A DNA stretch of 64,000 nt from an uncultured Erysipelotrichaceae bacterium (GTDB lineage Bacteria > Bacillota_I > Bacilli_A > RF39 > UBA660): NCBI GenBank assembly GCA_902776735.1, contig CACYRE010000001.1, positions 48,395 through 112,394 on the forward strand. The letters run 5' to 3'. The notes beneath the pieces are model-generated. The model ran no database searches. It saw only the letters and a program-made list of their open reading frames with translations, and had not been told where the DNA came from. The position numbers were made by a program, and so were the translations under genes. Shown piece by piece: positions 4,052-57,329 of this stretch. Positions within the stretch are counted from its first letter, which is position 1; every line of letters starts with the position of its first letter.

Positions 4052-5659
4052 TTAATCTTCATAGAATAAATCTGGTGAATTATGATTTTGTATCCATTCT
4101 TCTACTATATTTCTCATATTATCATAAGTTTCTTCATTAGGTATGTCTAATTTAACATCTCTAGTTAATTCTTCTCCATCATTACCTATTGCATATATAT
4201 CAAACTTTATTATATTGTTATCTTCAAAACTTATATTTCCTACTGTAAAATCACTTCCATCAAAAGCATCTTGAATAGCTTTAACTAGATTATTACCAGA
4301 ATCAGTATTAGTATCTTCTTTTAAGTCAGTATTTTCAGATTCACTGGTGTCTTCTAATGGTTGGTCTGGATTAAATTCTTCCCCATCTTTAATAACTTCA
4401 CATCTATCTAAATAATCTTTATCAGCTTCTTCTTTGCTTTCATAAATTTCTGCATTTTCTATTTCACCTTCAGAAAGATTATAATTTTCACCTACTATAT
4501 ATCTAGTTCCTTCAGATTTATCTTCTAGCATATAAATATTACCTTGTTCTTTTACTACTTGTAAATCTTTAACTTCTGTTTGAGCAGCTTCTACTACAAG
4601 TTTCTTTTTCGTTTTTTCTGACTCAGATAACTTATTATAATCATTTATAATATCTTTATCTTTCATCCAAGTATTTCTTATTAAATCTTCTTTATCTTTA
4701 TCTGATAATGAATTATAATAACTTGGGTCATCTATTGCTCCATTATCTAATAATCCTTTTACATAATTATAAAAATCGTCATCATTTACAGGTTTCTTTT
4801 CTATTGGTTTATTTGGTCCGCCTGCTTCTTCTAAAGATTTTTCTGATTCACTATAAAACTCATTTCCGCTAGCTAATCTTTTTCCTCTTTCTATTTGATA
4901 GTTACAAGTTTCTATCCAATCATTAACCATTTGTACTGATAATTTAGCTCCAAAAGAATTAGTATCTATAGCTTCTAAAGCAGCTTTTATTGTTTCCACA
5001 TCAGAAACAAAATCTTCTGGGTCTCCACCTAATTTTTCAGAATATTCTTCTTTTAAAGATTTAGCAGATTCTGATAGATTTCCTCCAGCTTTTACTTTTT
5101 CAAAAGCTTCTTTTCCAGATGCTTCATCGTAATAATAATATCCATAATCCCAAGAAATTTCATCATTTTCTACAGTATATCCAAAAGCTACTACATATTC
5201 ATCACCCATTTTTTGAAGTTTAACTAAAGCAACAGGTTGGCCTCTTCTTTCTGTTTTGTCTAGTATTTCAGCTTTTTCTCCTAGTTTAAATCCTTCTTTT
5301 AAAGATTTAGCAGATTCATCTAAAGTATTCCATTTTTTAAGTTGGTCCATCATAACTACTTGTTTACTAGGTACTTCAACAGTTACATATTTTCCATCTT
5401 CTATTTCTATAATAGGGGCTTCTGTAAATTCTCCTGGTGTATATGAACCATATTTATATGGTACTTTTACTACATCTCCTACTTTAAAATCTTGATTATT
5501 CTCTTCTTTTAAAGGTTTATCACATTCTTGTAATTCAGATTCTAATTTTTCTACTTTAATCTTAGTACCTTCCATAAAAACTCTTTTTTTAATTTTAAAA
5601 GTTTTAGTTTCACTTTCATTAAGTTCTTTTGCTAAATTAAAACTAAGTTTATTTAACAT
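4052..5659 (-). CDS. hypothetical protein with shared 30-aa N-terminal leader (family 2)
   Basis: N-terminus MLNKLSFNLAKELNESETKTFKIKKRVFME nearly identical to adjacent gene 5675..6430; ~95 bp DNA repeat at both 5' ends. Confidence 0.65.
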   Translation of the reverse strand: MLNKLSFNLAKELNESETKTFKIKKRVFMEGTKIKVEKLESELQECDKPLKEENNQDFKVGDVVKVPYKYGSYTPGEFTEAPIIEIEDGKYVTVEVPSKQVVMMDQLKKWNTLDESAKSLKEGFKLGEKAEILDKTERRGQPVALVKLQKMGDEYVVAFGYTVENDEISWDYGYYYYDEASGKEAFEKVKAGGNLSESAKSLKEEYSEKLGGDPEDFVSDVETIKAALEAIDTNSFGAKLSVQMVNDWIETCNYQIERGKRLASGNEFYSESEKSLEEAGGPNKPIEKKPVNDDDFYNYVKGLLDNGAIDDPSYYNSLSDKDKEDLIRNTWMKDKDIINDYNKLSESEKTKKKLVVEAAQTEVKDLQVVKEQGNIYMLEDKSEGTRYIVGENYNLSEGEIENAEIYESKEEADKDYLDRCEVIKDGEEFNPDQPLEDTSESENTDLKEDTNTDSGNNLVKAIQDAFDGSDFTVGNISFEDNNIIKFDIYAIGNDGEELTRDVKLDIPNEETYDNMRNIVEEWIQNHNSPDLFYED

Positions 5660-5674
5660 AATATAAACTCCTTT

Positions 5675-6430
5675 CTATAAAGTATTTTTAATCGGAATAA
5701 TTAAATCTAAATGGTCTTGTAAATCTTGTGTATCTATTCCTCCATATTGTAAATCATTTTGAAATTCTGTTTCAGCGTCAGATTCCCAATCGAATTCAGG
5801 GTCATTTTCTTCAGCCCATTTTTTAGATTCTTCATAATATCCTAAAGCTTCTATTATTTTCTTTTCATCATCTATTAAAGTAAATAAACCAACTTCAATA
5901 CTACCATCATGGTCTGCAGCATCTAATACAAGATTTCCATTTTCAACTGAGATTTCAACTATATCCCATCTACTAATATATTCTTCAAATTCTGATATAT
6001 TTGAAAAAGTAACACCACCATTGCCAGATGGTTTAAAATCAGAATAATTAGAATTATATCCACCCATTAAATATAATCTACCAAAATTCATTTGATTTTC
6101 AATCATTGGTTCTATATTTTCTTTAAAATCATCCCAAATAAGTTCTGAATCGTCATAAAAATCAGAATTTAGCCATTCATCATAACTAGGGATTTCATCC
6201 TCATCATATCCATCAAAATTAGCTTTAATATAATCATTATAAGCTTCTTCACTAGTATCTACTTCAGAAGACCAAATTGTCTGTCTATTTTCATTTTTTA
6301 TATGAAATTCATTTAGTCTTTCTTTTCTAACTCCTGTGCTTTCCATAAAAACTCTTTTTTTAATTTTAAAAGTTTTAGCTTCACTTTCATTAAGTTCTTT
6401 TGCTAAATTAAAACTTAATTTGTTTAACAT
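5675..6430 (-). CDS. hypothetical protein with shared 30-aa N-terminal leader (family 2)
   Basis: N-terminus MLNKLSFNLAKELNESEAKTFKIKKRVFME; paralogous leader to 4052..5659, unrelated C-terminal body. Confidence 0.65.
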   Translation of the reverse strand: MLNKLSFNLAKELNESEAKTFKIKKRVFMESTGVRKERLNEFHIKNENRQTIWSSEVDTSEEAYNDYIKANFDGYDEDEIPSYDEWLNSDFYDDSELIWDDFKENIEPMIENQMNFGRLYLMGGYNSNYSDFKPSGNGGVTFSNISEFEEYISRWDIVEISVENGNLVLDAADHDGSIEVGLFTLIDDEKKIIEALGYYEESKKWAEENDPEFDWESDAETEFQNDLQYGGIDTQDLQDHLDLIIPIKNTL

Positions 6431-11611: not shown

Positions 11612-12331
11612 CTAGCTATTTGATTGATTTTCAAGCTTCTTTTTAATTTCTTCCATTGATAAACCATTTATAAGACCATCTCTAATTTCTTCCATTTGAT
11701 TACTATCAAATTCTGGTTTAGCATAAGTTAATACTTGTTCCATAGATAAATCATAAAAACCGTATCTAATTTGTCTCATTTGATATTTATCAAATTCTGG
11801 TTTAGCATAAACCTGTATTTCTTCCATAGACAAGTTACGGTCAAAACCATTTCTAATTTCTTCCATTTGTTCACTGCTAAATTCTGGCTTAGCATAAACT
11901 TGTACTTCTTCTATAGATAAACCATCATAAAAACCATCACTAATTTTATCCATTTGATTTTCATTAAATTCTGGTTTAGCATAAACTAATACTTGTTCCA
12001 TAGATAAACCATTTCTAAAATCTACTCTGATTATATGCATCTGGTTTTTATTAAATTCTGGTTTAGCAAATAATAATACTTGTTCCATAGATAAACCATT
12101 ATAAAATCCATTTCCAATTTCATACATTTGACCATTATCAAATTCAGGTTTAGCATAAACTTGTACTTCTTCCATAGATAAGCCATGTCTAAAGCCATTT
12201 TTAATTTCATTCATTTGCCATTTATCAAATTGTCCACTTTCTTCGCACTGTTTAATAAAGTTATCTTCTGTAGTCCCTTCATTTAAATTATTTTGAATAC
12301 TTTCTAATAATTTCATTGTATCATTTTTCAT
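11612..12331 (-). CDS. leader-bearing repeat protein (family 1 leader MKNDTMKLLESIQNNLNE; 7 x ~33-aa repeats)
   Basis: N-terminal 18 aa identical to 12336..12719 (57-bp identical DNA); body is 7 tandem repeats GFxxGLSMEEVQVYAKPEFxxxQMxxI. Confidence 0.65.
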   Translation of the reverse strand: MKNDTMKLLESIQNNLNEGTTEDNFIKQCEESGQFDKWQMNEIKNGFRHGLSMEEVQVYAKPEFDNGQMYEIGNGFYNGLSMEQVLLFAKPEFNKNQMHIIRVDFRNGLSMEQVLVYAKPEFNENQMDKISDGFYDGLSIEEVQVYAKPEFSSEQMEEIRNGFDRNLSMEEIQVYAKPEFDKYQMRQIRYGFYDLSMEQVLTYAKPEFDSNQMEEIRDGLINGLSMEEIKKKLENQSNS

Positions 12332-12335
12332 ATTT

Positions 12336-12719
12336 TTACCTTCTTAATATTTTTAATTGTTCATTAGCACATTGGTCTAACAAATCAATAACTTCTTCAA
12401 TAGATACACCTGTTTTTTCTTTTCTGTTGATTGCTTTATTGTCTTTTATAATATCTACATAAATATCATAATCATCACTGTGTTTATTATATCCAATAAA
12501 ACCTAGTCTTATAGAAGTACCACCAGATATATAACCTTTACTATCATATATATCAGCAGCAAATCCAATATTTCCTGTACCAGTATCATATTGATAAACA
12601 AATTTATATACTTTATTTATTGTAGAAGTTAACATAGATATAAATTGTTCTTTATTTATATCACTCTCATTTAAATTATTTTGAATACTTTCTAATAATT
12701 TCATTGTATCATTTTTCAT
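12336..12719 (-). CDS. leader-bearing protein (family 1 leader MKNDTMKLLESIQNNLNES)
   Basis: Identical leader to 11612..12331, unrelated body. Confidence 0.6.
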   Translation of the reverse strand: MKNDTMKLLESIQNNLNESDINKEQFISMLTSTINKVYKFVYQYDTGTGNIGFAADIYDSKGYISGGTSIRLGFIGYNKHSDDYDIYVDIIKDNKAINRKEKTGVSIEEVIDLLDQCANEQLKILRR

Positions 12720-13597: not shown

Positions 13598-15634
13598 TTA
13601 TAATACTTGAATAGCTCCAGTAGATGCAAAATAAAATCCACTAAAATCTAAGTCTCTACCTAAAGCTCCATAATCAAAATAATCAGATAAATCATTTCCA
13701 TCTGCAATATCTATTTCTAATTGTTCTTCTACTACAGAGTCTAACCATTCTTCTACTAGGTCATAAAATTCATCACTACCTTCATCTATATCTGGGTTAT
13801 CATCTCTTACAGATTCTTCAGCTGCTTCTCTCCAGCTTTCTCTATAAGCTTTTTCATCAATATAATTTTCTTTATTAGCTACTCCTTCAAAACCTCCAAT
13901 CATATCTACCCAGGCTTCACCTAATTCTTCTTCAGTTTCTACTCCTGGAAAGAATATATAATCCCCAGATTCTAATATATCCATACAAGTATCAAAATCA
14001 TCATTTTGGTCTTCCATTATAGCAGTAAAAGCAGCTCTTTCATCTTCTGATAATTCTTCAATCTTTTCAAGCTGTTCAATAACTACCCAAGGATTTGAGT
14101 ATTCATCTATAGTAAAAGGAATATCTCCTTCAGTATCATTTATAAATGGTTCTTCATCTTTATGTGCTTCTAAAAATTCTTTAGCTTGTTCTAATTTCAT
14201 CCAACCACCATTTATTTGTTCTACATCTGCTCCATTTTCATTATAATTTCCCCAAGTATTCATAAATAATTCAATATTTAATGGATTATATTCTTCTGTT
14301 AATAAACCTTTTTCTATACTATCTTTTCTTACATTTTCTAAACTAGATTCTTCTAATTGACTTAATTTATCCATTAGAAAATCTCTTTTAGACTCTAAAC
14401 CAGAAATATTTTTATTTGGGTCAGAATTTGCTATACTATCTTGTACTTTTTCTAATTCTTTCTTTATAGTTTCAGCATAATCTTTTCTTGTTTTATTTGA
14501 TACTGATTCAGACAACATATCATAAACTTCTTGTGTTTCATATCTTATTATATGTTTTCCATCTTTATCAGTTCCATTATACATAGGACCTAAATAACCT
14601 TTAAATTGTAATTGATTATCTAATTCTTCTCTTGGAACTACACCACCATTATTTCTATATTTTGAATTATCAGGAGATAATTTATCTTCTTTTATTGGTA
14701 ATTTTTCTGCTTCTTCTCTTGTATAAGTTCCAGCATAATCACCACCAACTAATTGATAGACATAATTATTATAATCAGCCTCTTCATTTAAAGCTGATTC
14801 ATCATATTCCTCAAAATCAAAGTTTTGATTTACTTCTTCTAAAAATTCATCTAAATAATTATCATTTACAGAATCTAAATCTGTATTTCTTAATGCAAAC
14901 ATTATTACTTGAACCATTGATTGCCAGGTTTTTGACCTATTAAAATCTTCTATATTATTAGGCATTGATGAAATAAAACCAGAACTAGAAGAATAATTTG
15001 ATTTTAAAAAGTTTTCAAATTCACTATTTGATAAAGCTTCTTTTCTTAAATTTTCATATTCATCTTGATTTACTTCTAAATTAAATTCTAGCTCGTCTCC
15101 TGAATAATTATATTGACTTGGATGATAAACTTTATTTGCTATAATTTTAGCACTTGGAAGAACTTCTTGTATTGTTTTTTCTATATATTTTGGAGCAATA
15201 TCTTCTATTATTTTATCTAATTCTTCTAATGAAGCACTATCTGGTAATCTGTCACTTAAAGAATACATATCAACATTTATTATTGGAAGTACCCCAGTAT
15301 TTAAATCTATATCTAAATTAGCTCCAGATTCATTTAAATTAGATTCATCTAATGATATACTTCCATAACCTTTATATTCTTCATATCCTTGGTCTTTTAA
15401 TTCTCTTGCTTTTTGTCTTAATGCTTTGCTTGTTAATTTTTTATGTTTATTTAAAGGCATTGTTTGACTATTAACAAATTGAAATTGTTTAGTTTCATTA
15501 TTTATAATTAAACCTAAAATACTAAAGTTAAATTGATTTTTAGACACATAGGTTTCGTCACCAGATAACATTTTTTTGTCATCTTCTTTTAAATTTGCTT
15601 GAATATTTTCAAATAACTTTTTTGTTCCTGACAT
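13598..15634 (-). CDS. large leader-bearing protein (MSGTKKLFENIQANLKED)
   Basis: 678 aa; N-terminus fits family-1 leader consensus; RBS AGGAGGATTAAAATG. Confidence 0.65.
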   Translation of the reverse strand: MSGTKKLFENIQANLKEDDKKMLSGDETYVSKNQFNFSILGLIINNETKQFQFVNSQTMPLNKHKKLTSKALRQKARELKDQGYEEYKGYGSISLDESNLNESGANLDIDLNTGVLPIINVDMYSLSDRLPDSASLEELDKIIEDIAPKYIEKTIQEVLPSAKIIANKVYHPSQYNYSGDELEFNLEVNQDEYENLRKEALSNSEFENFLKSNYSSSSGFISSMPNNIEDFNRSKTWQSMVQVIMFALRNTDLDSVNDNYLDEFLEEVNQNFDFEEYDESALNEEADYNNYVYQLVGGDYAGTYTREEAEKLPIKEDKLSPDNSKYRNNGGVVPREELDNQLQFKGYLGPMYNGTDKDGKHIIRYETQEVYDMLSESVSNKTRKDYAETIKKELEKVQDSIANSDPNKNISGLESKRDFLMDKLSQLEESSLENVRKDSIEKGLLTEEYNPLNIELFMNTWGNYNENGADVEQINGGWMKLEQAKEFLEAHKDEEPFINDTEGDIPFTIDEYSNPWVVIEQLEKIEELSEDERAAFTAIMEDQNDDFDTCMDILESGDYIFFPGVETEEELGEAWVDMIGGFEGVANKENYIDEKAYRESWREAAEESVRDDNPDIDEGSDEFYDLVEEWLDSVVEEQLEIDIADGNDLSDYFDYGALGRDLDFSGFYFASTGAIQVL

Positions 15635-19467: not shown

Positions 19468-20844
19468 CTATAAAATTAAATTATCTAAAGTACTTTTTCT
19501 TATCTTACAGCTATCTGCAGCTCTATCTGGCCTCCAACCTTTAAAAATAGCATGAGCAAACCTTTGATTTTTAGATGATATATCTTGTCCATCTATTTCA
19601 GCAACACATCCATATACTCTTGGTAATAAAGCAACATTTCCATTTTCATCTTTTATAGAAATCATTTTTCTTAGTTCATCTGTCATTCCAGAAATAGTTG
19701 CTATATGATGTATTATTGGATTTCCAGTATCATCCAGTAGATAATTATTCTCATCATCTGTTAAATAAATTGAAAATTCTAAAGCTCCCACTAAACCTTC
19801 ATTAGCAGTACCTGGATTTCCTTCTTTAAATCCTGTTACAAAAGCGTCTACAGTATCTCCTAATTTTTCTGCTAATAAAGATTGAGACACAGTTCTTTTA
19901 AGTTTTATCCATTCTCCTCTACGTTTACTCCAAGGTTCATAACCAGAATCTAAATCTTTAGTAACTACTCCTTCTCCACCTTCATTAATTATCTGGTCAT
20001 AAAATGCATGTTTATTTATACAAGTGCTAGATATTAATTGTATTCTATCTTTAAACCCAGCAAATGATAACAATTTATATATTTCTAATACTTTTTTATA
20101 TCTTTCTCTAAATACTGGTCCTACTATCTCTTTTCCATTATCATCTAATTTATTAATTAACCAATTATTATTTAGTTTTAATATATCAAATATCATAAAT
20201 TTAAGTGGATTAGTTTCTTGCATTTTATGAGATAAATCGTCTAAACTTCCTAAAATACTAGTAGTTAAGTTTTGTTGAGTTTCTGCTACTAATTCTGTTC
20301 CATCTTTCATAGGATTCACGACGTTATAATATGGGACTATTTCTGTATCTATAATAAAATTATTAATACTAGCATTTGTTAATATTTCAGGAATAATCTG
20401 AGGTACTAGTATTTTAGTTCCATAAGATATAGGTAAACTATCTGTAATAGATTTATTCCTACTAAAGAAATCAAACCCTTTATTTCTATCCCAACAAACT
20501 AAACATCTACATCCATCTATTTTCTCTTGAAATATCCAACCATGTTCAGTATTAAAATCACAATCTTCCCATAGTTTATCTCTAATATTATCTAATTTTT
20601 TATCTTTGGACTGTAAAGCCAACATAGGTCCTGATATATGTAAAATATCCTTAACAAATGGATTTAGTGTACCTTCTCTTTCATATTTAGCTAAATAATA
20701 ATTTTGTACTGCTTCTTCTAAATCTTCTATAGTAGGTTCAAAATAATATTCTCCAGTATCTTTATTTTTTCTTCGTCTAGATTTTTTAATATTAGTTATA
20801 TTTAAATCTTCGCATTGTTTTATTAGTTCATCTTTTCTTGCCAT
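19468..20844 (-). CDS. lig: ATP-dependent DNA ligase
   Basis: Motif I KIDGCR, motif IV EGVVTK, motif V WIKLKR. Confidence 0.8.
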   Translation of the reverse strand: MARKDELIKQCEDLNITNIKKSRRRKNKDTGEYYFEPTIEDLEEAVQNYYLAKYEREGTLNPFVKDILHISGPMLALQSKDKKLDNIRDKLWEDCDFNTEHGWIFQEKIDGCRCLVCWDRNKGFDFFSRNKSITDSLPISYGTKILVPQIIPEILTNASINNFIIDTEIVPYYNVVNPMKDGTELVAETQQNLTTSILGSLDDLSHKMQETNPLKFMIFDILKLNNNWLINKLDDNGKEIVGPVFRERYKKVLEIYKLLSFAGFKDRIQLISSTCINKHAFYDQIINEGGEGVVTKDLDSGYEPWSKRRGEWIKLKRTVSQSLLAEKLGDTVDAFVTGFKEGNPGTANEGLVGALEFSIYLTDDENNYLLDDTGNPIIHHIATISGMTDELRKMISIKDENGNVALLPRVYGCVAEIDGQDISSKNQRFAHAIFKGWRPDRAADSCKIRKSTLDNLIL

Positions 20845-20858
20845 TATATCCTCCTAAT

Positions 20859-21338
20859 CTATATTATTTCTGCATTGTCTAGAAATTTGTCTAATACTAA
20901 TTTAATAAAATCTTTTCCTAAATTATTAGAGTTAGATGATTTAGTTATATCTACTTTTAATTCACCATTTTTATATCGTCTAAAATATATAGTTCCGTTG
21001 TCTATATTATCTTCCCAATATAATACAAACCATCTATCACCATCACCTACAGAACCACAAGCTGTTAAATCTACTTTGGAAATATTTCTAGTATAAGTAA
21101 TTTCATTATTTTTAATATCACTTTCTACTGGTTTTTGGTTCTCTCTAGTAATACCTTTAATTGCCCAAAATTGAGCTTCTTCTAATTTAGTCATAGCCAA
21201 ACTAGTTTCTCTTCCTGGTTTGCAAAGTTCTTCTACTGAATCATAAATATCAGACATACTATCTCTAAAACAATCTATTCTTGATTGCTGGTCTTCGGTT
21301 GTTTGAGTATATCTTGCTTTTTCATGTAAATCTCTCAT
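20859..21338 (-). CDS. hypothetical protein
   Basis: ORF, RBS AAGGAGGTAATAT upstream. Confidence 0.5.
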   Translation of the reverse strand: MRDLHEKARYTQTTEDQQSRIDCFRDSMSDIYDSVEELCKPGRETSLAMTKLEEAQFWAIKGITRENQKPVESDIKNNEITYTRNISKVDLTACGSVGDGDRWFVLYWEDNIDNGTIYFRRYKNGELKVDITKSSNSNNLGKDFIKLVLDKFLDNAEII

Positions 21339-21379
21339 ATTTATATTACCTCCTTATATAAATAATTATGCTATAAATG

Positions 21380-21413
21380 AAAATAGTATATAACTTAAGT
21401 TATATACTATTTT
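21380..21413. repeat. 34-bp perfect palindrome AAAATAGTATATAACTT|AAGTTATATACTATTTT
   Basis: Read directly; intergenic between 21477..22112 and 20859..21338. Confidence 0.8.
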
Positions 21414-21476
21414 CGAGAAATGATTGAATTTTTTATATAATATAAAGTTGCTATACTATATCTAATTTATATTATG

Positions 21477-22112
21477 CTATGTATTATACCATTTTATTTT
21501 GTCTTCTTCTAACATTTGTTTTAATTTTTCTCTATTTTCTACTTTAAATGCTTCTATCATATCGATTCCTAATTTATCTAAATAATCTTTAAAATAAATA
21601 GTATTTCTTTCTTGATGTATATTATTAAATGTTGATTTACCGTCTATATGTTGAACTAAACATGGTCTATAAATCAAATGTGGGATTCCTTTATTATGTA
21701 AAACTAATGATAATAATGTGCCATATTTTTGTTGTTTTGGATATTTGTCTTCTGGTAAATACATAGTCATCATCTCATCAGCTAGCATTTTAGTTATTCC
21801 CTTAGGAAAGTATGTACATTGGTTATATGCAAATATATTAGAATAATGTGTTGTATAATATAATTCTGGTCTATTAAAAAAATTAATAATAGAATCTGGA
21901 TATTGATTTACAACTTTTTTAACTTCTTCTTCAAAATTATTGCATAATATAATATCATCTTCCATAAGAACTGCGTTATAATCATTAATTTTATATAAAG
22001 CATCAATATAAGATTTAACATATTTATGTTCATAATCTATAATTGGTTCATATTCTATTGGAATATTAATTTTTCTATTTTCCATTGTACGTACAAAATA
22101 TTTTATATCCAT
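21477..22112 (-). CDS. hypothetical protein
   Basis: ORF; followed by 34-bp perfect palindrome. Confidence 0.5.
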   Translation of the reverse strand: MDIKYFVRTMENRKINIPIEYEPIIDYEHKYVKSYIDALYKINDYNAVLMEDDIILCNNFEEEVKKVVNQYPDSIINFFNRPELYYTTHYSNIFAYNQCTYFPKGITKMLADEMMTMYLPEDKYPKQQKYGTLLSLVLHNKGIPHLIYRPCLVQHIDGKSTFNNIHQERNTIYFKDYLDKLGIDMIEAFKVENREKLKQMLEEDKIKWYNT

Positions 22113-22114
22113 TT

Positions 22115-22732
22115 TTATACTACCTCTATTATTGGTTCTCCTGATAAACTAATTGTTTTAGTATCTCCACTTGCTCCTAATAATTTTATGCTAGATGTAT
22201 CTACTATATCTACTTGTAAATTACAATCTACTATTGGATTTCCTGATGAATAAGTTCTAATTAAATTAATAAAATCAATTACTCTAAAAGGATATGGAAC
22301 CATTCCACAACTAGTATTAAATGAAGCTATAGTAGATACAGTTTCATTACGTTCAAAACTACCATTTTTTCCTATAATACCACAAATAAATATACCATTA
22401 TTAATTGAAAAATATAGTTTACCCATAATATAAGTATTACTAATATAAGAAACAGCACACTCAGAAATAGTTATAAATCCTGTGATTTCACTTCCATCAG
22501 TATTTAATACCATTTCTTTTTCCTCATCAGTTGTATTATTATCTATTAAATTAACTAAGTATTCTAGTCTATATTTAACTCTAGAATTAGCTTTTAAATG
22601 TCTATTCTTGACTGAATCATCTAAAGTTCCAACTATATCAAATATTTGAACATCTTTCTTTATATTGTTTGAAATAATTTTTTCATTTTTTTCATTTAAA
22701 ATTTCTTGAGCTTTTTCTTTTAAAGTACTCAT
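22115..22732 (-). CDS. receptor-binding/tail-fibre-like protein, paralogue A1 (shared N-term MSTLKEKAQEILNEKNEKIIS)
   Basis: N-terminal ~35 aa near-identical to 24044..24826 and similar to 56285..57037; divergent C-terminus. Confidence 0.55.
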   Translation of the reverse strand: MSTLKEKAQEILNEKNEKIISNNIKKDVQIFDIVGTLDDSVKNRHLKANSRVKYRLEYLVNLIDNNTTDEEKEMVLNTDGSEITGFITISECAVSYISNTYIMGKLYFSINNGIFICGIIGKNGSFERNETVSTIASFNTSCGMVPYPFRVIDFINLIRTYSSGNPIVDCNLQVDIVDTSSIKLLGASGDTKTISLSGEPIIEVV

Positions 22733-22751
22733 ATTTTTCTCCTTCCTTATT

Positions 22752-23243
22752 TTAATTTCCTAAAATCTCATCGAGAATAGCTTCTATTTCTTCTTCAGTT
22801 CCACCCATTCCGTCATAACTATCTGAAGTTCCATCAATATCATTTAAAATATCCATTACTTCTTCAGCATCTGGAACAGGAGTTGGTTCTGGTGATGGTC
22901 CTGGCCCTATTTCACTATTATTAGCGATTTGAACTATTCCTTTTAATAGAGTAGTTTCTGTTGGTTCTACTTTATCAGGATTTGTATATACTTGAGTTAT
23001 TTCTCCAGGAGTAATAAATTTAATATCATCAGAAGAACCTGCAATAACTGCATTATTCTTTAATATTCTTTTCATTGCTTCTGGTGTTATACTTTCTACA
23101 GTAACTATAGTTCCATCTTCTAAAGTAACTTCTCTTTGAAAAGCTATTTTGCTATCAGAGCTATCAATATTATCATTAATAACATGAACAAAACCTAATT
23201 CTGTAGTAGAATCATTTAATGTATTCTGTTTTAATTTTTCCAT
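22752..23243 (-). CDS. paralogue B1 (shared N-term LKQNTLxxSTTELGF...EVTLEDGT)
   Basis: N-terminal module shared with 23316..24020. Confidence 0.5.
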   Translation of the reverse strand: MEKLKQNTLNDSTTELGFVHVINDNIDSSDSKIAFQREVTLEDGTIVTVESITPEAMKRILKNNAVIAGSSDDIKFITPGEITQVYTNPDKVEPTETTLLKGIVQIANNSEIGPGPSPEPTPVPDAEEVMDILNDIDGTSDSYDGMGGTEEEIEAILDEILGN

Positions 23244-23315
23244 AATCTAATGTTTTCTCCTTTCATATTATTTTAACTATTTATGAATAATTAAATATAA
23301 AGTATTAGTTTTTGA

Positions 23316-24020
23316 TTAAATGCTTTCAGCTGAGTCAAGTAACCAATCAAGTTTTTCTGAGTCATATTCTAATAATGAAGTTGGTGTTCCAGAAGATAAA
23401 TTATTTTGTATAGCATTTATTTCTTCTAATACAAACTCATCTATAGAAGCTGGTTCGTATTGTCCTGTTTGACTTACTGAGTACCAACCTGCTTTTTCAA
23501 ATCCAGATGCTTGAGCCATATTTTGAGTAATATACATTAATCCATAACGTTCAGAGTCTTTATAAAATGAAATTCCTATAAAAGGCATTTTATTTATATA
23601 TGATGTTACTATTCCAATACCATTATCTATATTGCCGATACCAATAAATACTGAATTATCTTGAATATTTAAAAATTCAGCTAATTCCTCAATACTCATA
23701 TTATCTATAGTATCTAATCTTTCTTTAAGTTTAAATTTATATGAGCTTCCTAAAGTAATAGTATCAAATTTTTGTTCTGGAGAATCCCCATTATATATTT
23801 GTACTACTCCATTCAATTCAACATCTCCATTTATATATGGTTCTCCTGGAGTTTTAAAAGTAATACCTAATTTTGTAGCTAACATTGCAGGAGTAATTCC
23901 ATTTATCATAGTTTTTGTTCCATCTTCTAAAGTAACTTCTTGTTGAAGAGGAATATTTGTTTCAGCTGGAAAACCTAACTCTGTAGTTGCTTCAGCTAAA
24001 TTGTTTTGTTTTAAAGCCAT
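23316..24020 (-). CDS. paralogue B2 (shared N-term MALKQNNLAEATTELGF...EVTLEDGT)
   Basis: N-terminal module shared with 22752..23243. Confidence 0.5.
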   Translation of the reverse strand: MALKQNNLAEATTELGFPAETNIPLQQEVTLEDGTKTMINGITPAMLATKLGITFKTPGEPYINGDVELNGVVQIYNGDSPEQKFDTITLGSSYKFKLKERLDTIDNMSIEELAEFLNIQDNSVFIGIGNIDNGIGIVTSYINKMPFIGISFYKDSERYGLMYITQNMAQASGFEKAGWYSVSQTGQYEPASIDEFVLEEINAIQNNLSSGTPTSLLEYDSEKLDWLLDSAESI

Positions 24021-24043
24021 TTTTATTTTCTCCTTTCTTTAAT

Positions 24044-24826
24044 TTATTGTACTGGTTCACGTACTTCCCAACCTAATTCCATACAATCTTGCCAAATAGG
24101 TAATTCTGTACATGTATTACATTGACTATCTGAAAAACCAAGTAAACGGTCTAATGTTTTCCAATGAGCTCGTGGTGGTTGAACTTTATTTAATGGAAAC
24201 TCAATATCAGAAATCATAGCTAATATGTTATTTAAACTTTCATTAGATAAATTTGGACAATTTTGAAACATATTATTCATAAAATTATCATGCAAATATT
24301 CTTCTAATGTTTTATCAAAGCTTTCAGCAATCCTTGTTATATCTTCTAAACTAGTATTTATACAATATACTGGTACATCAACTAAATCTCCACAACCACC
24401 AAACATTCCATAAACAGATGTTGCATTAATTATATTTATTTGTGGAGCATTTATAATTCGTGAACCTGAAAACATACTATCAAATCTAGTACCAGAACTT
24501 GTATCTATATTTAAGTCAATTCTAGAGCTATCTGTATCAGAATAAAGCTCACCAAACATATTAACGAAATCTGTAACTTGACTAAAATCTAATTTATTAA
24601 AAACATCACTTATTAATAAATTATAATATTCAACAGGAATACTACCTTCATCATATAAAGTGTCTCTAAACATCTCTACTGCTCTAAGTCTAGTAAAACT
24701 AGGTAAAGTAGGTTTATAATTTCCTACTACATTAAATATCTGTGTTCCTGGTCTTATGTTATCTGAAATAATTTTTTCATTTTTTTCAGTTAAAATCTCT
24801 TCAGCTTTTTCTTTTAAAGTAGACAT
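24044..24826 (-). CDS. receptor-binding/tail-fibre-like protein, paralogue A2; C-term with NxSNESLNNILAM motif
   Basis: Shares N-term with 22115 and C-terminal NLSNESLNNILAMISDI with 51002 and 56285 proteins. Confidence 0.55.
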   Translation of the reverse strand: MSTLKEKAEEILTEKNEKIISDNIRPGTQIFNVVGNYKPTLPSFTRLRAVEMFRDTLYDEGSIPVEYYNLLISDVFNKLDFSQVTDFVNMFGELYSDTDSSRIDLNIDTSSGTRFDSMFSGSRIINAPQINIINATSVYGMFGGCGDLVDVPVYCINTSLEDITRIAESFDKTLEEYLHDNFMNNMFQNCPNLSNESLNNILAMISDIEFPLNKVQPPRAHWKTLDRLLGFSDSQCNTCTELPIWQDCMELGWEVREPVQ

Positions 24827-24840
24827 ATTTTTCTCCTTTC

Positions 24841-26013
24841 TTAAGATTTATCTATATTAGATTTTTTCTTATTATCTAAATTTTGCATTAATTCTAAAGC
24901 TGCTTGCCATCCTTGTACTGTATCTATTAAAATATTTTGTGCAGGTCTATCATTAATTGAAAGATATGTATTATATTCTGGATTTGGGTCATATACTTTC
25001 CAAGTTCCATTTATATCATGTTCTGTATTAATAGACCAGCTATAATCAGTTTCATCATAAGGATGAGAACTAGAAATATAATATTTATTATTAGAATCTT
25101 TAAAATAATAAGGTCTAGGTAATTCTGGTAAACCATTTTCATCGAAAGACATTTGACCATTTTCATCTTCATATCCTTCTTTTAATTTATCTTTATGAAT
25201 AGCTAGATATTTATCTCCTTCTTTAACTAAGATATAATTACCTCTTTGATATTGACCTTTAGAATTTTTTAAGAAACCTTTATTTAAAATATTTAATCCT
25301 TCATCCAATCCAGAAAGTAATATATCATAATGTTTCTTTTTAGAAGTAGTAACATCTTTATTCATATCTTGGTCTACTTTAGGAGCTATATCAGAAGTTT
25401 GTGTTCCATCTTCTTTTATTTCTATTCTTCTAGTATCTTGAGCTTTATTAACTAATTTAGTATATTGTTCATTAGATATATTATCTTCTAATGAAGCTTT
25501 TTCTAAAAAATCGTCTAGCTCTTTATCTGTTGCGTCTTTAGAAATTAAGTCATCTAACTCTTTATCTAAAGCTATATAATAAGCATTTTCTTCATCAAAA
25601 GATTCCTTTATTTTTTTGTTTCCATTACCTCTAAGAATATAACCTGCTCCTTCAAATATTTTATAACCATTAATTTCAGTTAAAGGAATACCAGCTTCTT
25701 CTACTATTTCTATATTTTCATTTAATAAATCATTACATTCTGAATAATAGTCTTCTACAGTAATTCCTGACTCTTCAAATATATCTTTAAATTTTCCAGT
25801 TTCTAAAATATAATTTTCATTTAAATACAATAAAGAAGTTGCATAAGCCCTACATTCTAATAAATCATCTAAAATATTATTATCTGAATTATCTGTATTC
25901 TTATAAGCAATAACTTTATTATCTAAACCATTAATCTTAATTAGATTATATACACCCTCTTTAAGATTAACTATATCATATTTTAGATTTTTAAAATTAC
26001 TTAATATATTCAT
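24841..26013 (-). CDS. hypothetical protein
   Basis: 390-aa ORF downstream of a strong terminator hairpin. Confidence 0.5.
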   Translation of the reverse strand: MNILSNFKNLKYDIVNLKEGVYNLIKINGLDNKVIAYKNTDNSDNNILDDLLECRAYATSLLYLNENYILETGKFKDIFEESGITVEDYYSECNDLLNENIEIVEEAGIPLTEINGYKIFEGAGYILRGNGNKKIKESFDEENAYYIALDKELDDLISKDATDKELDDFLEKASLEDNISNEQYTKLVNKAQDTRRIEIKEDGTQTSDIAPKVDQDMNKDVTTSKKKHYDILLSGLDEGLNILNKGFLKNSKGQYQRGNYILVKEGDKYLAIHKDKLKEGYEDENGQMSFDENGLPELPRPYYFKDSNNKYYISSSHPYDETDYSWSINTEHDINGTWKVYDPNPEYNTYLSINDRPAQNILIDTVQGWQAALELMQNLDNKKKSNIDKS

Positions 26014-26073
26014 TAAATCTTACTCCTTTCTGTAATTATTCTATAACTAATTATTCTTCCTAATTAAATATAT

Positions 26074-26103
26074 AAAAGTGTAACATCATTTAGTTACACT
26101 TTT
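26074..26103 (-). terminator. intrinsic terminator (11-bp stem AAAAGTGTAAC/GTTACACTTTT, 8-nt loop, flanking T/A runs; potentially bidirectional)
   Basis: Between 26133..26321 stop and 24841..26013 start. Confidence 0.65.
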
Positions 26104-26132
26104 ATAATTCTTCAAATTTTAAATTTTTAATT

Positions 26133-26955: not shown

Positions 26956-28470
26956 TTAATTTTTTCCTTCCTCTAAAATTTGTTTTAATTCTTCTTCAGT
27001 TAATAATCTATTTTGTTTAAAACACCATAATAAACCTTGTTTTAATTGTCTAGTTAAATTTCGGTCTATTTGTCCTACTTCTAATGGAAGAGTTTCTACT
27101 TTACCAAACATATTTGATATTAATCCACCATTAATTTGTACTAAGCATCTTTTATAACTATCTATTGTACCAACAGCTTCTAATATATGAACATATTGTT
27201 CTGAATATTTACTATCAATTCTAGTAACTCTACCCACAGCTTGTATAAAAGTTAATATACTAAAAGGTATATCATAAAATACTATACTGTCTGCTCTTTG
27301 TAAATTTATACTCTCAGTACCAGCACTAGTAATTAAGACCACAGTCTTATTATCTATTAAATCTTCAACTTTTTCTCTCTGTTTTTGAGATACATCGCCT
27401 GTAACTTTTAAAATCTGTTTTACTCCAGTAATAGATTTACTTTTATTTAAAATTAATTCTAGCCTATCTATTACTTCATTATAATCACAATATACTAAAG
27501 TTGGATGATTATTATCCATTTTAGTTTTAATTAATTGTACAAATAATATCTCCTTACTAGAAAGTTTATCATTAACTCTATGGTCTTCATTAATATTATC
27601 TACTACTTGTTGTAAATCATGCATTCTTACCGCAAAGCTATCTTTAGCAGTATCTCTTAGTAAACCTTTTCCTGCTTCTAAATAGCCATCTATTTCATTT
27701 TTATTTAAATTAGTTTTATGAAAATAATATTTAAGATTATATTCTTTTTGTTTTATTATAATATATTTATCTAAAAGATTTTTTAATATCTGTAAATTTT
27801 TATACCCTACAATTTCTTCTTCCCAAACAGTTTTTCTATATTTATTTTTTCCTTTACCTACTAATCTTATCACTGGATGTTTATCTATAATTAAAAACAT
27901 CTTTTTAAAATATTCCCAAGTTCCTAATATTTTAGGGTCTAATATATACATAAGCCAATATAAACCTTCAATATTATTCTTTAATGGAGTAGCCGTCATA
28001 AAATGGACTATTGAAAATAAATGTCTTATACTAGCTACAGTTTCATAAATCTTACTAGTATTACTTTCTAAACAATGTGCCTCATCAACTAATAATATTA
28101 ATCTATGACCATTTTCTCTAAGCATATTTATATAATCTAAATGTTTTCTTAAACTAGTATGAGTTATTATAGATATTCTAGCTCCCTTTTGCATTTGTGG
28201 AGTAGCACTGGTTAAAGTATTAAAAGATATTTTTAATTTTTCTGTTAATTCTTTTCTAAAAGCTTTTACTGCTTTTTGTGGTACTAAAAATATAGCATGA
28301 GTATCTGGATATTTTAATAAAACATGAGTAACACAAGTTGTCATAGTATATGTCTTACCAAATCCAGTCTGAGCGCTACATACAGCTTTATTACGTTTTA
28401 TCATAAAATCTATTATTTCATTTTGGTCATCTGTTAATGGCCAATCTTTACGTAAAGTATAATCTATCAT
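26956..28470 (-). CDS. superfamily-2 DEAH-box helicase
   Basis: Motif I AQTGFGKT, II LLVDEAHCL, III MTATP, VI QAVGRVTRID. Confidence 0.75.
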   Translation of the reverse strand: MIDYTLRKDWPLTDDQNEIIDFMIKRNKAVCSAQTGFGKTYTMTTCVTHVLLKYPDTHAIFLVPQKAVKAFRKELTEKLKISFNTLTSATPQMQKGARISIITHTSLRKHLDYINMLRENGHRLILLVDEAHCLESNTSKIYETVASIRHLFSIVHFMTATPLKNNIEGLYWLMYILDPKILGTWEYFKKMFLIIDKHPVIRLVGKGKNKYRKTVWEEEIVGYKNLQILKNLLDKYIIIKQKEYNLKYYFHKTNLNKNEIDGYLEAGKGLLRDTAKDSFAVRMHDLQQVVDNINEDHRVNDKLSSKEILFVQLIKTKMDNNHPTLVYCDYNEVIDRLELILNKSKSITGVKQILKVTGDVSQKQREKVEDLIDNKTVVLITSAGTESINLQRADSIVFYDIPFSILTFIQAVGRVTRIDSKYSEQYVHILEAVGTIDSYKRCLVQINGGLISNMFGKVETLPLEVGQIDRNLTRQLKQGLLWCFKQNRLLTEEELKQILEEGKN

Positions 28471-42944: not shown

Positions 42945-42947
42945 AAT

Positions 42948-43027
42948 TGGAGAAGGTAGGATTCGAACCTATAATATTTAAATGACTTATACAAATCATT
43001 ATTCTCTACCAATTGAGATACTTCTCC
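42948..43027 (-). tRNA. tRNA-like gene with canonical acceptor/D/T arms but non-canonical anticodon arm (isotype unassigned)
   Basis: Minus-strand RNA GGAGAAG-TA-TCTC-AATTGGTA-GAGA-A-[TAATGATTTGTATAAGTCATTTAAATATTA]-TAGG-TTCGAAT-CCTA-CCTTCTCC-A: 7-bp acceptor, D-arm, GGTTCGAATCC T-arm; no 5-bp/7-nt anticodon arm can be drawn (best: 7-bp stem AATGATT/AGTCATT with 6-nt loop, or 6 bp with 8-nt loop). No encoded CCA. Confidence 0.55.
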
Positions 43028-43377
43028 ATAAATTTGGTGAGAGGTTCTAGTTTACGTCCAAATTTATAAGGTAATCAACCTCTTTCAGAGTATAAATACT
43101 CCCTCTCTATTAAATGACGTACATTGCACTATACAATAATATAAATCTATTAGGTTATTATATAATATGATGAGTATTATTTTTAATTAACATCATTATA
43201 TTATTAATACAGCTACTGTAACTCTATAATGTAGACCTCTTCATTCTACACCGTCGCTTTACACTATATAAAGCTAAATACCTATAGGCGTCTATTATTT
43301 CAAATAGACATCCACATCTATCATTGTAGATGTTTCAAGTATCATAAAATGTAATCCTCTGGACGATTACTTTTCCA

Positions 43378-46965: not shown

Positions 46966-47748
46966 TTAATTTCCATAAGATAATGGAGTATCAAAACGAA
47001 TATCTTCTGATTTAGTAGCTGGACTAAGCATATCATTTTGAGTAATCTCATAATTTTCAAATTTAAATGGTTCATATCCTTCTATTGAAAATGTCATATT
47101 GTATACTCCAACAGGTAATTCTACATATTGAGCATTATATTGTTCACTAAAGCTAGTAATATATTCTGTACCAGATTCATCTGTTATAGTATATGAAATA
47201 CCTTCAAAATGTTTAATATAATTTCCATTTATGTCGTATGGATATAAATAAACTATTTGAACATTTTTTGGTTCAACTACAATATCTATAGTTTTAACTA
47301 TTGGATTATACCCTTCTGCTGTTATAGTATAATAAAGTTTAGTATTATCTGAAATATTAGTAGTATTAAAAGTTATTTCATTATTACTTTTAATTAAATC
47401 TATTGTAGATAAATCATCAACTCCTAGGCATATTACTTGAGAATTTCCTGCATTAGACTTAATTGGTAAATTATAATTCTCACCTATTTTAAGTGTTAAA
47501 GACTTTGGAATTTCAGTTTCAATTTCTATGTCTTTACTATCAACAGAATAAAAATTTAATAATACTCCACCGAAATCTCCTGATTCATCAGTTAGTTTAT
47601 CTAATCCTAAAACAGAACTAGCAAGTGTTCCTTTTTTATACATCTCTTCTAATAATATTTGTTCATTTTCATCTAATCTATTAATTAAAATCTTATCAGT
47701 AGATTTTATTTCTGCATACATATTAAGTGTTCTCCTTTCTAACATCAA
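46966..47748 (-). CDS. putative virion/Ig-like beta-rich protein
   Basis: ORF, beta-strand-rich, upstream of lysis genes. Confidence 0.4.
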   Translation of the reverse strand: MMLERRTLNMYAEIKSTDKILINRLDENEQILLEEMYKKGTLASSVLGLDKLTDESGDFGGVLLNFYSVDSKDIEIETEIPKSLTLKIGENYNLPIKSNAGNSQVICLGVDDLSTIDLIKSNNEITFNTTNISDNTKLYYTITAEGYNPIVKTIDIVVEPKNVQIVYLYPYDINGNYIKHFEGISYTITDESGTEYITSFSEQYNAQYVELPVGVYNMTFSIEGYEPFKFENYEITQNDMLSPATKSEDIRFDTPLSYGN

Positions 47749-50779: not shown

Positions 50780-51014
50780 TTACGTTTTGAGATTTACGCA
50801 CCAATTTATCTAATTCTGACTGAGAGACTATTAAAGTATCGATTATTACTCCTAATTGTTCTGGATATTCACTAAATGGTGAATCTTCTTCTAAAGTTCC
50901 TCCAATTTCATTAATAGAATCTTTTATTAAATCTTTAGTTTCTTCAATGTATTCAAGTTTGGTTTCTATTTCATTATTTTCTTCCATAAACATACCTCCT
51001 ATTATGCAGACCAT
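50763..51014 (-). CDS. hypothetical acidic protein
   Basis: small ORF. Confidence 0.4.
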   Translation of the reverse strand: MVCIIGGMFMEENNEIETKLEYIEETKDLIKDSINEIGGTLEEDSPFSEYPEQLGVIIDTLIVSQSELDKLVRKSQNVNGEEL

Positions 51015-53572: not shown

Positions 53573-54319
53573 CTATACTACACCAGATACTCCATATCCA
53601 TAACCATATCCATAATAAGGACTGTATAAGCTTGTATATGGGCTTGATACAATATAAGATGGAGTAGGATATGGTCTCAAAGTATTAGTTAAGTTTGCTG
53701 TTTGGTCAATTTGAGAAATTTGGAATCTTGCTGTTTGAAGTTCTCTATCTCTATCTGCTAGCTTATCACGTAAGTTGTCAATTTGATTTTGACATAAAGC
53801 ATCTAAGATTTTTTGAGTATTAGCAACTCCTTCTTCTCTTAAAGTGCAGCAACAACTAGCTAATTGCATTTGATTTGTTAATGCATTATTTGATGCTTGC
53901 ATTTGTGCTTCTAGAGCATTATTACTTAACTGCATTTGAGTTCTTAGAGCATCTGTTGACATTTGTCCTTGTAACTGATTTGTTTGTAAAGCGTTATTAA
54001 ATCTGTTTTCTAAAACCTCTTTAGTTGTTCCAAATGAAGTTTCTAGTACATCACGATTTACTTGATTTACAGCATCATGATTTTGAACTGATAAAAACTT
54101 ATCGTTTTGGTTACTAAATTGATTTGCTACAAATTCTGTAGAAGCATTATCATTGTTGTTTCCAAAGAAGCCTCCATTTCCGCCAAACATCCCAGCAATT
54201 ATAAAGAATATTATAATCCACCAGAAATAACCCCCTCCCATATTATCGTAATCATGGTCGTGATTATTAGTTAAAGCTAGTACATCTGCGGCTGTTAAGC
54301 CTGAATTTGCATTGTCCAT
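53573..54319 (-). CDS. membrane-anchored coiled-coil protein with Gly-rich N-term and YGYGYGYG C-terminus
   Basis: GGGYFWWIIIFFIIAGMFGG TM; Q/N-rich heptads; CCC triplet. Confidence 0.45.
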   Translation of the reverse strand: MDNANSGLTAADVLALTNNHDHDYDNMGGGYFWWIIIFFIIAGMFGGNGGFFGNNNDNASTEFVANQFSNQNDKFLSVQNHDAVNQVNRDVLETSFGTTKEVLENRFNNALQTNQLQGQMSTDALRTQMQLSNNALEAQMQASNNALTNQMQLASCCCTLREEGVANTQKILDALCQNQIDNLRDKLADRDRELQTARFQISQIDQTANLTNTLRPYPTPSYIVSSPYTSLYSPYYGYGYGYGVSGVV

Positions 54320-54365
54320 AGATGGACCTCCTTTCCAATAAACTATTTATGTAATGTTGCAACTA

Positions 54366-57037: not shown

Positions 57038-57329
57038 CTTCTAAATCTGTTATAATTTGTTGCTGTTCAGATACTGTATTTGATAATTCTTCTATTCTTT
57101 TTCGTAATTCTTCTACTTGTTTTCCTCCTCCAGAAGATTCTTTCATAGAAGTTTTATAATTATCATAAGCTGATTCTGCTTCTTCTAAAGTATCATAAGC
57201 TTCTTTTAAAGTTTCTCCATTTTTTCTATAAAAAATTAATTCTTTATTATTTTCAGGATTTATTACTAAATTTTGGATATAATAAAGATTAATTAATTTA
57301 TTATTTTTATCTTTAATAAATATAGCCAT
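56967..57329 (-). CDS. hypothetical acidic coiled-coil protein
   Basis: ORF. Confidence 0.45.
   Translation of the reverse strand: MAIFIKDKNNKLINLYYIQNLVINPENNKELIFYRKNGETLKEAYDTLEEAESAYDNYKTSMKESSGGGKQVEELRKRIEELSNTVSEQQQIITDLEDEVNNAEDITDEILSLPEDNLEE

Follow-up and report, generated by a model that had tools for sequence, protein, structure and literature searches.

Shared N-terminal modules and a linked acidic tail in a variable gene island of a large low-GC gut phage

What does a variable island of six genes, set between the SNF2 helicase and DNA ligase genes of an uncultured phage, encode? The sequence studied is a stretch of 64,000 nt (positions 48,395 to 112,394 of contig CACYRE010000001.1, assembly GCA_902776735.1, deposited as an uncultured Erysipelotrichaceae bacterium), which we call the window and whose coordinates we use throughout. 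The island runs, in the direction of transcription, from gene X through A2, B2, B1, and A1 to a gene for a putative glycosyltransferase (GT), and A1, A2, B1, and B2 combine an A-type or B-type N-terminal module with differing C-terminal parts. We find that an acidic C-terminal tail of ~39 aa, carried by B1 and by long fiber-like proteins of other large phages, is, where it forms a free C-terminus, nearly always followed within two genes by one that starts with an A-type N-module. What is new here is this unreported linkage of acidic tail, A N-module (the candidate plug), and GT. On balance the evidence leaves an even chance that the island is a dispensable, fast-evolving set of accessory virion fibers or adhesins made from exchangeable modules. 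We propose more tentatively that large low-GC gut and rumen phages may use an undescribed system of plug (a ~36-aa class-I N-module) and socket (the ~39-aa tail), together with a dedicated GT-A-like enzyme, by which interchangeable heads would be mounted on long fibers, daisy chains, or B1.

Modules of the Island Proteins

An earlier note on this DNA had picked out four open reading frames (ORFs) as two A-type and two B-type genes with like N-termini. They lie exactly where it placed them, all on the minus strand: A1 (22115–22732, 205 aa), B1 (22752–23243, 163 aa), B2 (23316–24020, 234 aa), and A2 (24044–24826, 260 aa). Pairwise alignment, the check that the note had suggested, finds both N-terminal similarities significant: A1 and A2 are 74% identical over residues 1 to 35 (BLASTP E 5e-12), with no similarity thereafter, and B1 and B2 are 40% identical, with 80 to 116 residues aligned (E 8e-11). 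Their C-termini had been called swapped; instead, each of the four proteins carries a different C-terminal part, unrelated to the other three. The significant similarity between paralogues, the higher identity between orthologues than between paralogues, and the conservation across phages indicate, at the level of sequence, that the modules are real and under purifying selection.

The A N-module comprises ~36 residues (residues 1 to 36 of A1, nt 22625–22732; residues 1 to 35 of A2, nt 24722–24826) with the consensus MSTLKEKAxxILxEKNxKIxPENIKKDVQIFDVTGT, in which a helix is followed by a conserved NIKKDVQIFDVTGT element. It precedes DUF285 leucine-rich repeats (LRRs) with an ESLNNI...GWTTGY cap, or other domains. 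Relatives did not turn up when A2 and B2 were each scanned against IMG/VR as single proteins, and it took alignments of the modules to reveal them; the A N-module is present in dozens of metagenomic proteins and at 13 IMG/VR loci, is found in contigs of metagenome-assembled genomes labeled Clostridia, Bacilli, or Eubacteriales, and keeps 55 to 85% aa identity in phages without alignable DNA in common.

Behind its module, A2 has a divergent DUF285-type LRR region (about nt 24383–24598) and a C-terminal cap, LSNESLNNILAM...GWE (about nt 24047–24259). Its DUF285 score of 23.7 bits (E 4e-5) falls just under the Pfam gathering cut-off of 25 bits, and it aligns with DUF285-positive homologues, over its full length with the window protein 56285 (56285–57037, minus strand; 28%, E 6e-15) and with the C-terminal half of the window protein 51002 (51002–52606, minus strand, 534 aa). 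The earlier note was right that the latter two are DUF285/BspA-LRR proteins, as both pass the cut-off (58.1 bits, E 9e-16, and 160.6 bits, E 2e-47), while the repeats, ten of them in 51002, have a period of 24 residues and not the 22 given there. A2 is, by alignment, a divergent relative of both. Recurrence of the A N-module in the two proteins, also claimed, holds for 56285 (residues 29 to 67); 51002 has a different N-terminus and only an internal, hairpin-like KIVKGYKILNIEGT element. The NESLNNI cap recurs in A2, 56285, and 51002, but it is missing from A1. A1, B1, and B2 have no DUF285 match in Pfam and are not DUF285 proteins. The C-terminal domain of A1 has no assigned fold: A1 has no Pfam or PHROG match, and its AlphaFold2 (AF2) model is weak (pLDDT only 64) and has no fold match. 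An A1-like head of weak similarity (25% identity, E 6e-5) occurs in an A-type gene downstream of an Mtd_N fiber in L057, one of the related loci that we number with the prefix L.

The hairpin half of the A N-module is also found as an internal repeat in other proteins. A 555-aa protein of a Paenibacillus sp. XY044 prophage (L050, 7539–9206) contains at least five repeats of the form ANIKxGVxIFGVTG...GxMPNNGxLGTITPGT, and its gene comes immediately behind those for the portal, scaffold, and major capsid proteins; from this position we take the hairpin half to be a widespread repeat of Firmicute phage structural proteins. The A N-module of 56285 is unusual in its start (window 56940–57040, minus strand). 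It begins 14 nt past the stop of the upstream ORF 56967–57329 and 4 nt past a good AAAGGAG site, with ATA as the in-frame codon; a nearby ATG (56949–56947) is out of frame and reads M-L-stop, and use of the ATG listed as start (57037) puts 28 unrelated residues in front, in overlap with the upstream gene. The gene may have a non-canonical or a frameshifted start, or it may be decaying.

How widespread is the B family? An exhaustive HMMER search of 1.84 billion proteins returned only 50 cluster representatives, all of which share the ~85-aa N-module in total lengths of 73 to 495 aa, and the module keeps invariant residues across these 50 clusters, which are separated at 50% identity. Big_3 Ig-like domains occur in 12 of the 40 members scanned, although in neither B1 nor B2, and B-family members have no PHROG match except to one Ig-domain family. 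Surface-type domains are thus attached to both modules, Big_3 in the B family and DUF285 LRRs in the A family. In B2 the N-module (residues 1 to 85, nt 23766–24020) is followed by a globular, beta-rich C-terminal domain (nt 23319–23765), which is modeled confidently by AF2 (pLDDT 80 to 93 over residues 80 to 234) and has no fold match in PDB or BFVD. B1 has no head; its N-module (nt 22914–23243) is followed by a Pro-rich linker (nt 22872–22913) and the 39-aa acidic tail DAEEVMDILNDIDGTSDSYDGMGGTEEEIEAILDEILGN (nt 22755–22871; net charge −14). B1 is also the best conserved of the four proteins, with orthologues 67 to 90% identical. Sequence profiles from PDB gave no match to the A, B, or GT families.

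An Acidic Tail Linked to A-Type Genes

Where else does the acidic tail of B1 occur? The tail, a helix-loop-helix of ~39 aa with the consensus ...ILNDxxGxSDxYxGMGGTEEEIExILDEILGN, ends proteins of 1,059 to 1,509 aa in at least four other large-phage lineages (L013, L016/17, L030, and L033-36; the tail-fiber-bearing contigs measure 59 to 210 kb). At their N-termini these long proteins have matches to PHROGs for tail fibers and minor tail proteins (E about 1e-8) and to Mtd_N of Pfam (E 2e-5 to 3e-4), behind which comes a coiled coil. They share only the acidic tail with B1, and A1, A2, B1, B2, and X have no Mtd_N or tail-fiber PHROG match. The tail also ends a 132-aa stub (L020) and a protein like the product of window ORF 46966 (m46966-like; L005/L039). 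Three proteins carry both the A N-module and the tail (127 aa in L021, 1,057 aa in L023, and 348 aa in L059), and in each case another A gene comes after, which is what a daisy chain would lead one to expect.

We pooled tail-only searches of IMG/VR and JGI metagenomes with the earlier loci. A free C-terminal tail was found in 15 distinct contexts of five architectures (B module, m46966-like, Mtd_N fiber, 132-aa stub, and A N-module proteins), and in 15 of 15 an A N-module starts the next or next-but-one gene, with one group of exceptions (L038/L060 and L055) and with counts that are not phylogenetically independent. In L053, L054, and L056 the tail is internal, a domain of 70 to 140 aa is fused in cis after it, and no A gene comes next; the start of the extra L053 domain resembles that of the B2 head (hhalign 88%, E 3e-6, 31 columns), a likeness that is not significant in pairwise BLASTP. 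The A N-modules themselves differ according to their context. The signature TLK(E/D)KA is present in 17 of 20 modules with a tail-bearing gene upstream and in 5 of the 30 that lack such a gene (Fisher p 2e-6, with no correction for relatedness). A1 and A2 both belong to this class (class I); 56285, whose module is of class II, does not.

These patterns suggest how the proteins might fit together. The B N-module would anchor B1 and B2 to the particle or to X, with B2 as a sister anchor that has a built-in globular head and B1 as a minimal, head-less adaptor whose acidic tail would be a socket. The A N-module would be the plug that docks onto this tail, and A1 and A2 would present different heads, the C-terminal domain of the former and the LRR/DUF285 domain of the latter. 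In other phages the long Mtd_N fiber would be the tail-bearing anchor, a role that B1 would take in the window phage, and proteins with both tail and A N-module would extend the chain. Cassettes would be exchanged between phages at the conserved ribosome-binding site (RBS) and N-module sequences. If true, the phage would encode an extensible, multivalent adhesin array outside its tail module, and B1, at 163 aa, would be a compact adaptor for engineering multivalent particles, comparable to the branching-domain/docking-peptide platform of Klebsiella phages. For uncultured phages of gut and rumen, sequence reveals little of the host range; a match of tail and A N-module as socket and plug would provide a sequence rule for finding exchangeable binding heads in this group of 60- to 210-kb phages, and the rule would cover DUF285/LRR proteins as well.

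Might the tail have another task? C-terminal registration tags of fibers are known, the foldon of T4 fibritin being an example, and the acidic tail, which ends long coiled-coil fibers, sits at the site of such tags. It could thus be a folding or trimerization tag, or else a recognition tag for the GT, which is always close by, with the A proteins as independent neighboring fibers that attach through their own N-modules; the products would still be virion fibers, but there would be no plug and socket. Short, ...ILGN-like C-terminal helices end many fiber-like proteins in related loci, and A-type arrays exist with no tail nearby, as a tag would allow. However, B1, the 132-aa protein of L020, and the 127-aa protein of L021 are an N-module plus the tail and nothing else, and a pure tag would leave such a fiber with no distal function. 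The tail is, moreover, kept internally when a domain is fused in cis, the downstream A gene is gone only then, and the TLKEKA signature correlates with an upstream tail. We therefore consider the tag explanation plausible but rather unlikely.

Beside these proteins stand many small fiber-like proteins of related loci that start KLxYLxxTKxxIKQAIxxKGVxV...FRxYA and end in a short acidic helix, ...EIxGx or ...ILGN (L016 12372–13295, L030 9019–10046, L038 7151–9792, and L059 2027–2401). They suggest that the family of head-to-tail motifs is wider than the set of acidic tail and A N-module.

Tail and A gene are also found side by side at another genomic position. In the distant relative L005/L039 an A2 homologue is placed after the lysis genes and is preceded by a 241-aa protein that joins the N-terminus of window ORF 46966 to the C-terminal tail of B1. 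In the window itself, ORF 46966–47748, which follows the amidase gene, lacks the acidic tail and has no A gene next to it, whereas in its homologue (L005 3144–3869; L039 5398–6123) the tail forms the C-terminus and the A2 homologue comes next. We read this as an apparent natural case of the putative socket and plug being lost or relocated as a pair.

The last gene of the unit (21477–22112, minus strand, 211 aa) encodes the GT-A-like putative glycosyltransferase, with invariant AVLxEDD and VQH motifs. It matches PHROG 854, a glucosyltransferase family (E 2e-5), and has no PDB match; its match to Glyco_transf_25 (E 0.0095, 16 bits) is below the Pfam cut-off of 24. Such sub-threshold matches recur in 8 of the 11 family members, among which the EDD motif is invariant. 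The family is 50 to 66% identical in distant phages and always stands beside an acidic-tail gene or A-type genes. Phage glycosyltransferases are known to glycosylate virions in mycobacteriophages, and judging from this constant neighborhood, the enzyme probably modifies the fiber assembly, in that it would act on the A and B proteins of the set.

Variation of the Island Among Relatives

Is the gene order of the island a structure in its own right? The earlier note had read A2-B2-B1-A1 as a mirrored duplication and had suggested comparing the cassettes of related phages. The cassettes do vary; the mirror order is not kept. The window reads X-A2-B2-B1-A1-GT, while L006/L007, with flanking genes 92 to 98% identical, read X'-B2'-B1-A2-A1-GT. 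At the same genomic position the order is X-B2-B1-A1''-GT in L009-L011, X-B2-GT-B1-A-GT in L012, L029, and L051, and X-B2-GT-B1-A-A-A-GT in L014; the 118.6-kb relative L063 has only X followed by a 169-aa B-type gene. All genes of the window island are co-oriented, there are no significant inverted repeats, and the order is not conserved even in a relative 87 to 98% identical. The paralogues are also old, since orthologues are more alike than paralogues. Because gene order varies among relatives and the paralogues are old, the mirror is one of several shuffled orders and not a structure of its own, and it illustrates that a tidy mirror order can arise as an accident of cassette shuffling. What the note had seen was thus real but misdescribed.

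For gene X (24841–26013, minus strand, 390 aa), the first of the island, searches of Pfam, PHROG, and PDB returned nothing. Relatives keep its N-terminal ~280 aa, and the C-terminus can be exchanged: identity to the L007 copy is 98% over 258 aa, beyond which the two sequences part, and identity to the L009 copy is 68%. X stands before a B-type gene in L007, L009, L014, L029, L051, and L063.

DNA comparison with L007 reveals how the modules move. A2 has moved as an RBS-bounded cassette (window 24842–24026) and stands at another position in L007, and the C-terminal parts of X and B2 have been replaced. The breakpoints fall at RBS-to-RBS boundaries and at a 90-nt direct repeat, D1, whose copies (22660–22749, spanning the RBS plus 73 nt at the start of the A1 coding sequence; 24754–24843, at the 5' end of A2) are 90% identical, RBS included. 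Might the shared N-termini, then, be no more than recombination or expression cassettes, that is, homology boxes of the RBS and the first ~100 nt that gene conversion maintains with no function in the protein? Mobile regulatory cassettes are known to shuffle genes in T4-type phages, the repeat includes the RBS, the A2 breakpoints agree, and other adjacent gene pairs of the window share N-termini as well. Within the genome, however, the A1 and A2 N-modules are 80% identical in nucleotides, versus 94% and 90% for orthologous A N-modules, and recent gene conversion is rejected on these values. The peptide is also conserved where the DNA is not similar, including where repeated copies of its hairpin half follow, and the B module extends over 85 residues, with invariant residues across the 50 clusters. 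We therefore reject recombination boxes as the sole cause, a reading of very low probability, while the repeats clearly serve as exchange points.

A switchable host range, also proposed in the note, finds no basis in the DNA: all genes are on one strand and no inverted repeats flank them. Inverted repeats within 21400–26100 reach at most 37 nt at 76% identity, as expected by chance at 25% GC, and no cassette is flanked by one; an invertase gene was not searched for. An invertible or shufflon-type switch of the Mu Gin or P1 Cin kind was accordingly rejected.

How fast do the island genes evolve? Between L007 and the window the flanks are 92 to 98% identical, A2 87%, A1 82%, and B1 90%, and the A1 of L009 can be aligned over 113 aa only, at 40%. 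Island orthologues thus diverge much faster than the flanking genes, a pattern typical of host-interaction genes. Divergence and domain replacement in A1, A2, B2, and X, against slower change in B1 and GT and flanks that are nearly identical in L007, are consistent with host-interaction heads carried by constant adaptors. The island is also dispensable, as L063 keeps only X and the 169-aa B-type gene here, which suggests accessory adhesins rather than an essential receptor-binding protein.

The six genes from X to GT form a unit bracketed by two strong hairpins on the minus strand. The terminator-like hairpin at 26071–26106, found by a terminator scan just upstream of X, marks the 5' boundary (fold −17.2 kcal/mol, z −6.3 versus shuffles). 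The 3' boundary, before an Acb2/Tad1-like gene, is an AT-rich 16-bp hairpin followed by UUUUCAUUU (21379–21414; −17.9 kcal/mol, z −6.8), which the pattern scan missed because its stem has too few G-C pairs. A scan for sigma-70 promoters found no enrichment. The exact 11-mer CATAAATAGTT has only two coding-strand copies (23275–23285 and 54341–54351, minus strand), both ~30 nt 5' of a start codon, that of B1 and that of a Gly/Tyr-rich ORF (53573–54319). It resembles the T4 late-promoter core TATAAATA, with a one-mismatch count at chance level, and could be a late promoter; we note it as a lead only.

Virion Fibers or Intracellular Proteins?

The position of the island invites a different explanation, in which its products are non-structural accessory proteins that act in or on the infected cell (host takeover, superinfection exclusion, or anti-defense) from a hypervariable early-gene island, with LRR and Ig-like domains binding host proteins. 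The island lies in the replication module between helicase and ligase, with an Acb2/Tad1-like gene adjoining it and an ArdA-domain gene at no great distance, and forms its own hairpin-bounded unit; that it is dispensable and highly variable would also fit an anti-defense island. We nevertheless doubt this explanation. The acidic tail, the A N-module, the GT family, and possibly a B2-type head recur on or beside proteins with tail-fiber N-termini, the A family stands beside baseplate and fiber genes in the same genome, and Big_3 and DUF285 are typical surface domains. We also count against it that no signal peptides or transmembrane segments are visible in the translations.

Several points weigh against the fiber or adhesin reading itself. 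The island is located between the SNF2 helicase and DNA ligase genes, beside an anti-defense gene of the Acb2/Tad1 type and outside the baseplate/fiber region. Neither Pfam nor PHROG nor PDB gave a match to the B N-module, so that it has no link of its own to a known virion protein, and since the confident B2 head has no fold match and the A1 model is weak, no binding function can be read from structure. The proposed docking is drawn from gene neighborhood and architecture, and the adjacency counts of tail and A gene are not phylogenetically independent. Many A-type genes stand in arrays with no acidic tail nearby, so the tail cannot be the sole attachment site. Simple charge complementarity between tail and plug is not supported, as the A N-module is neutral (net charge 0 to −1). 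The earlier note's view of these genes as modular receptor-binding proteins is thus partly supported: the conserved N-modules, replaceable C-terminal domains, links to tail fibers, and fast divergence agree with it, and the binding of a receptor is what we infer from them.

Comparison with Known Systems

Which described systems come closest? By functional analogy, these would be the branched receptor-binding proteins (RBPs) of Klebsiella phages, the Goslar fiber cloud, and downstream fiber-tip adhesins. None of the systems compared shares sequence or defining domains with the island modules; the LRR heads alone can be assigned to a described family, DUF285.

In the Klebsiella phages KP32, K11, and KP34, a first RBP has an anchor and a branching domain, onto which a second RBP docks via a short conserved N-terminal peptide (PMC6872550, PMC13352976). 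The likeness lies in the short conserved N-terminal peptide on interchangeable heads, the adjacency of anchor and client genes, the horizontal exchange of heads, and the presence of more than one head per phage. It is functional only, as there is no sequence similarity to the island proteins. The Klebsiella anchor is a T4gp10-like branching domain, to which X, B1, and B2 have no match in Pfam or PHROG, whereas the proposed socket of the island is a 39-aa acidic C-terminal tail; the Klebsiella heads are depolymerase beta-helices, whereas those of the island are LRR or unassigned domains. A GT-like gene belongs to the island set, unlike in the Klebsiella systems, and docking in the island is a prediction.

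The DUF7941 fiber cloud of the chimallivirus Goslar consists of paralogues in which a common N-terminal module is followed by carbohydrate-binding, hydrolase, or LRR domains, and a head-to-tail assembly is predicted in which the C-terminal segment of one protein binds the N-terminal module of the next (bioRxiv 10.64898/2026.04.21.720040). The island resembles it in having a common N-module with variable domains and in the putative head-to-tail pairing of C-terminal segment and N-module. However, the modules are different (the scanned proteins have no DUF7941 match, the presence of that family in the Pfam copy being unchecked), Goslar belongs to another phage lineage with another host range, and the island-type tail and plug are usually on separate proteins, with a plug of only ~36 aa.

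The gp38 proteins of T2 and S16 and the Tfa proteins of Mu and P2 are tip adhesins or chaperones encoded directly downstream of a fiber gene. There, as proposed here, a fiber gene is followed by a gene for a small tip-bound protein that sets specificity and is exchanged between phages. There is no homology, and in the island system several clients can follow one anchor, daisy-chain proteins occur, and clients reach 1,171 aa. DUF285/BspA-type LRR surface proteins (PF03382, PF13306) resemble 56285 and 51002, which pass the Pfam cut-off, and A2, which has the same 24-aa LRR and cap; unlike these surface proteins, those described here are phage-encoded, lack a lipoprotein signal, and, where the A N-module is present, are fused to a phage-specific N-module.

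The Phage and the Surroundings of the Island

The source phage is uncultured, low in GC, and from gut or rumen, and it is represented by contigs of 124.8 to 126.5 kb in several metagenomes, rumen data sets among them. The 50,697 deposited phage genomes include no close relative of it: megablast of the island region against these records gave no match, and the window DNA polymerase is at most 32% identical to any deposited phage record (26% over the longest match). The window has 25% GC, and its ORFs of at least 90 aa are all on the minus strand except one.

In the direction of transcription, baseplate-like and fiber-like genes (62316–63599 and 61732–62292) come first, then the two DUF285 genes 56285 and 51002, then lysis genes (47914), and finally a replication block with DnaB, PolA, the SNF2 helicase (26956–28470), and the ligase (19468–20844). 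A-family/DUF285 genes of this genome are thus also found downstream of baseplate-like and fiber-like genes and upstream of the lysis genes, and the island itself belongs to the replication block. There, SNF2 is followed by three small ORFs, X, A2, B2, B1, A1, the GT-like gene, the Acb2/Tad1-like gene, and the ligase. The Acb2/Tad1-like gene (20859–21338; hairpin-domain protein, Pfam E 3e-12) is of an anti-defense type, as is ORF 13598–15634, which encodes 678 aa, the C-terminal 237 of them 68% identical to an ArdA-domain protein of a relative; we observe these two as anti-defense-type genes flanking the island neighborhood.

The replication block also includes a MazE-like antitoxin-domain gene, a weak match to GIY-YIG (SegE-like) homing endonucleases, and a T4_Y16D-family gene (29479–29901, 33656–33988; L001 137–376). 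ARAGORN calls one tRNA-like gene, whose anticodon has four bases (gtat) and to which no amino acid is assigned, at 42947–43028 (minus strand), within a 973-nt stretch free of ORFs. Two further pairs of adjacent genes are alike at their N-termini only, 4052–5659 with 5675–6430 (52% over 78 aa) and 11612–12331 with 12336–12719 (18 of 18 residues), so the sharing of N-terminal modules between neighbors is a genome-wide habit of the window phage. L012 has chimeric relatives of ORFs 2008, 11612, and 13598.

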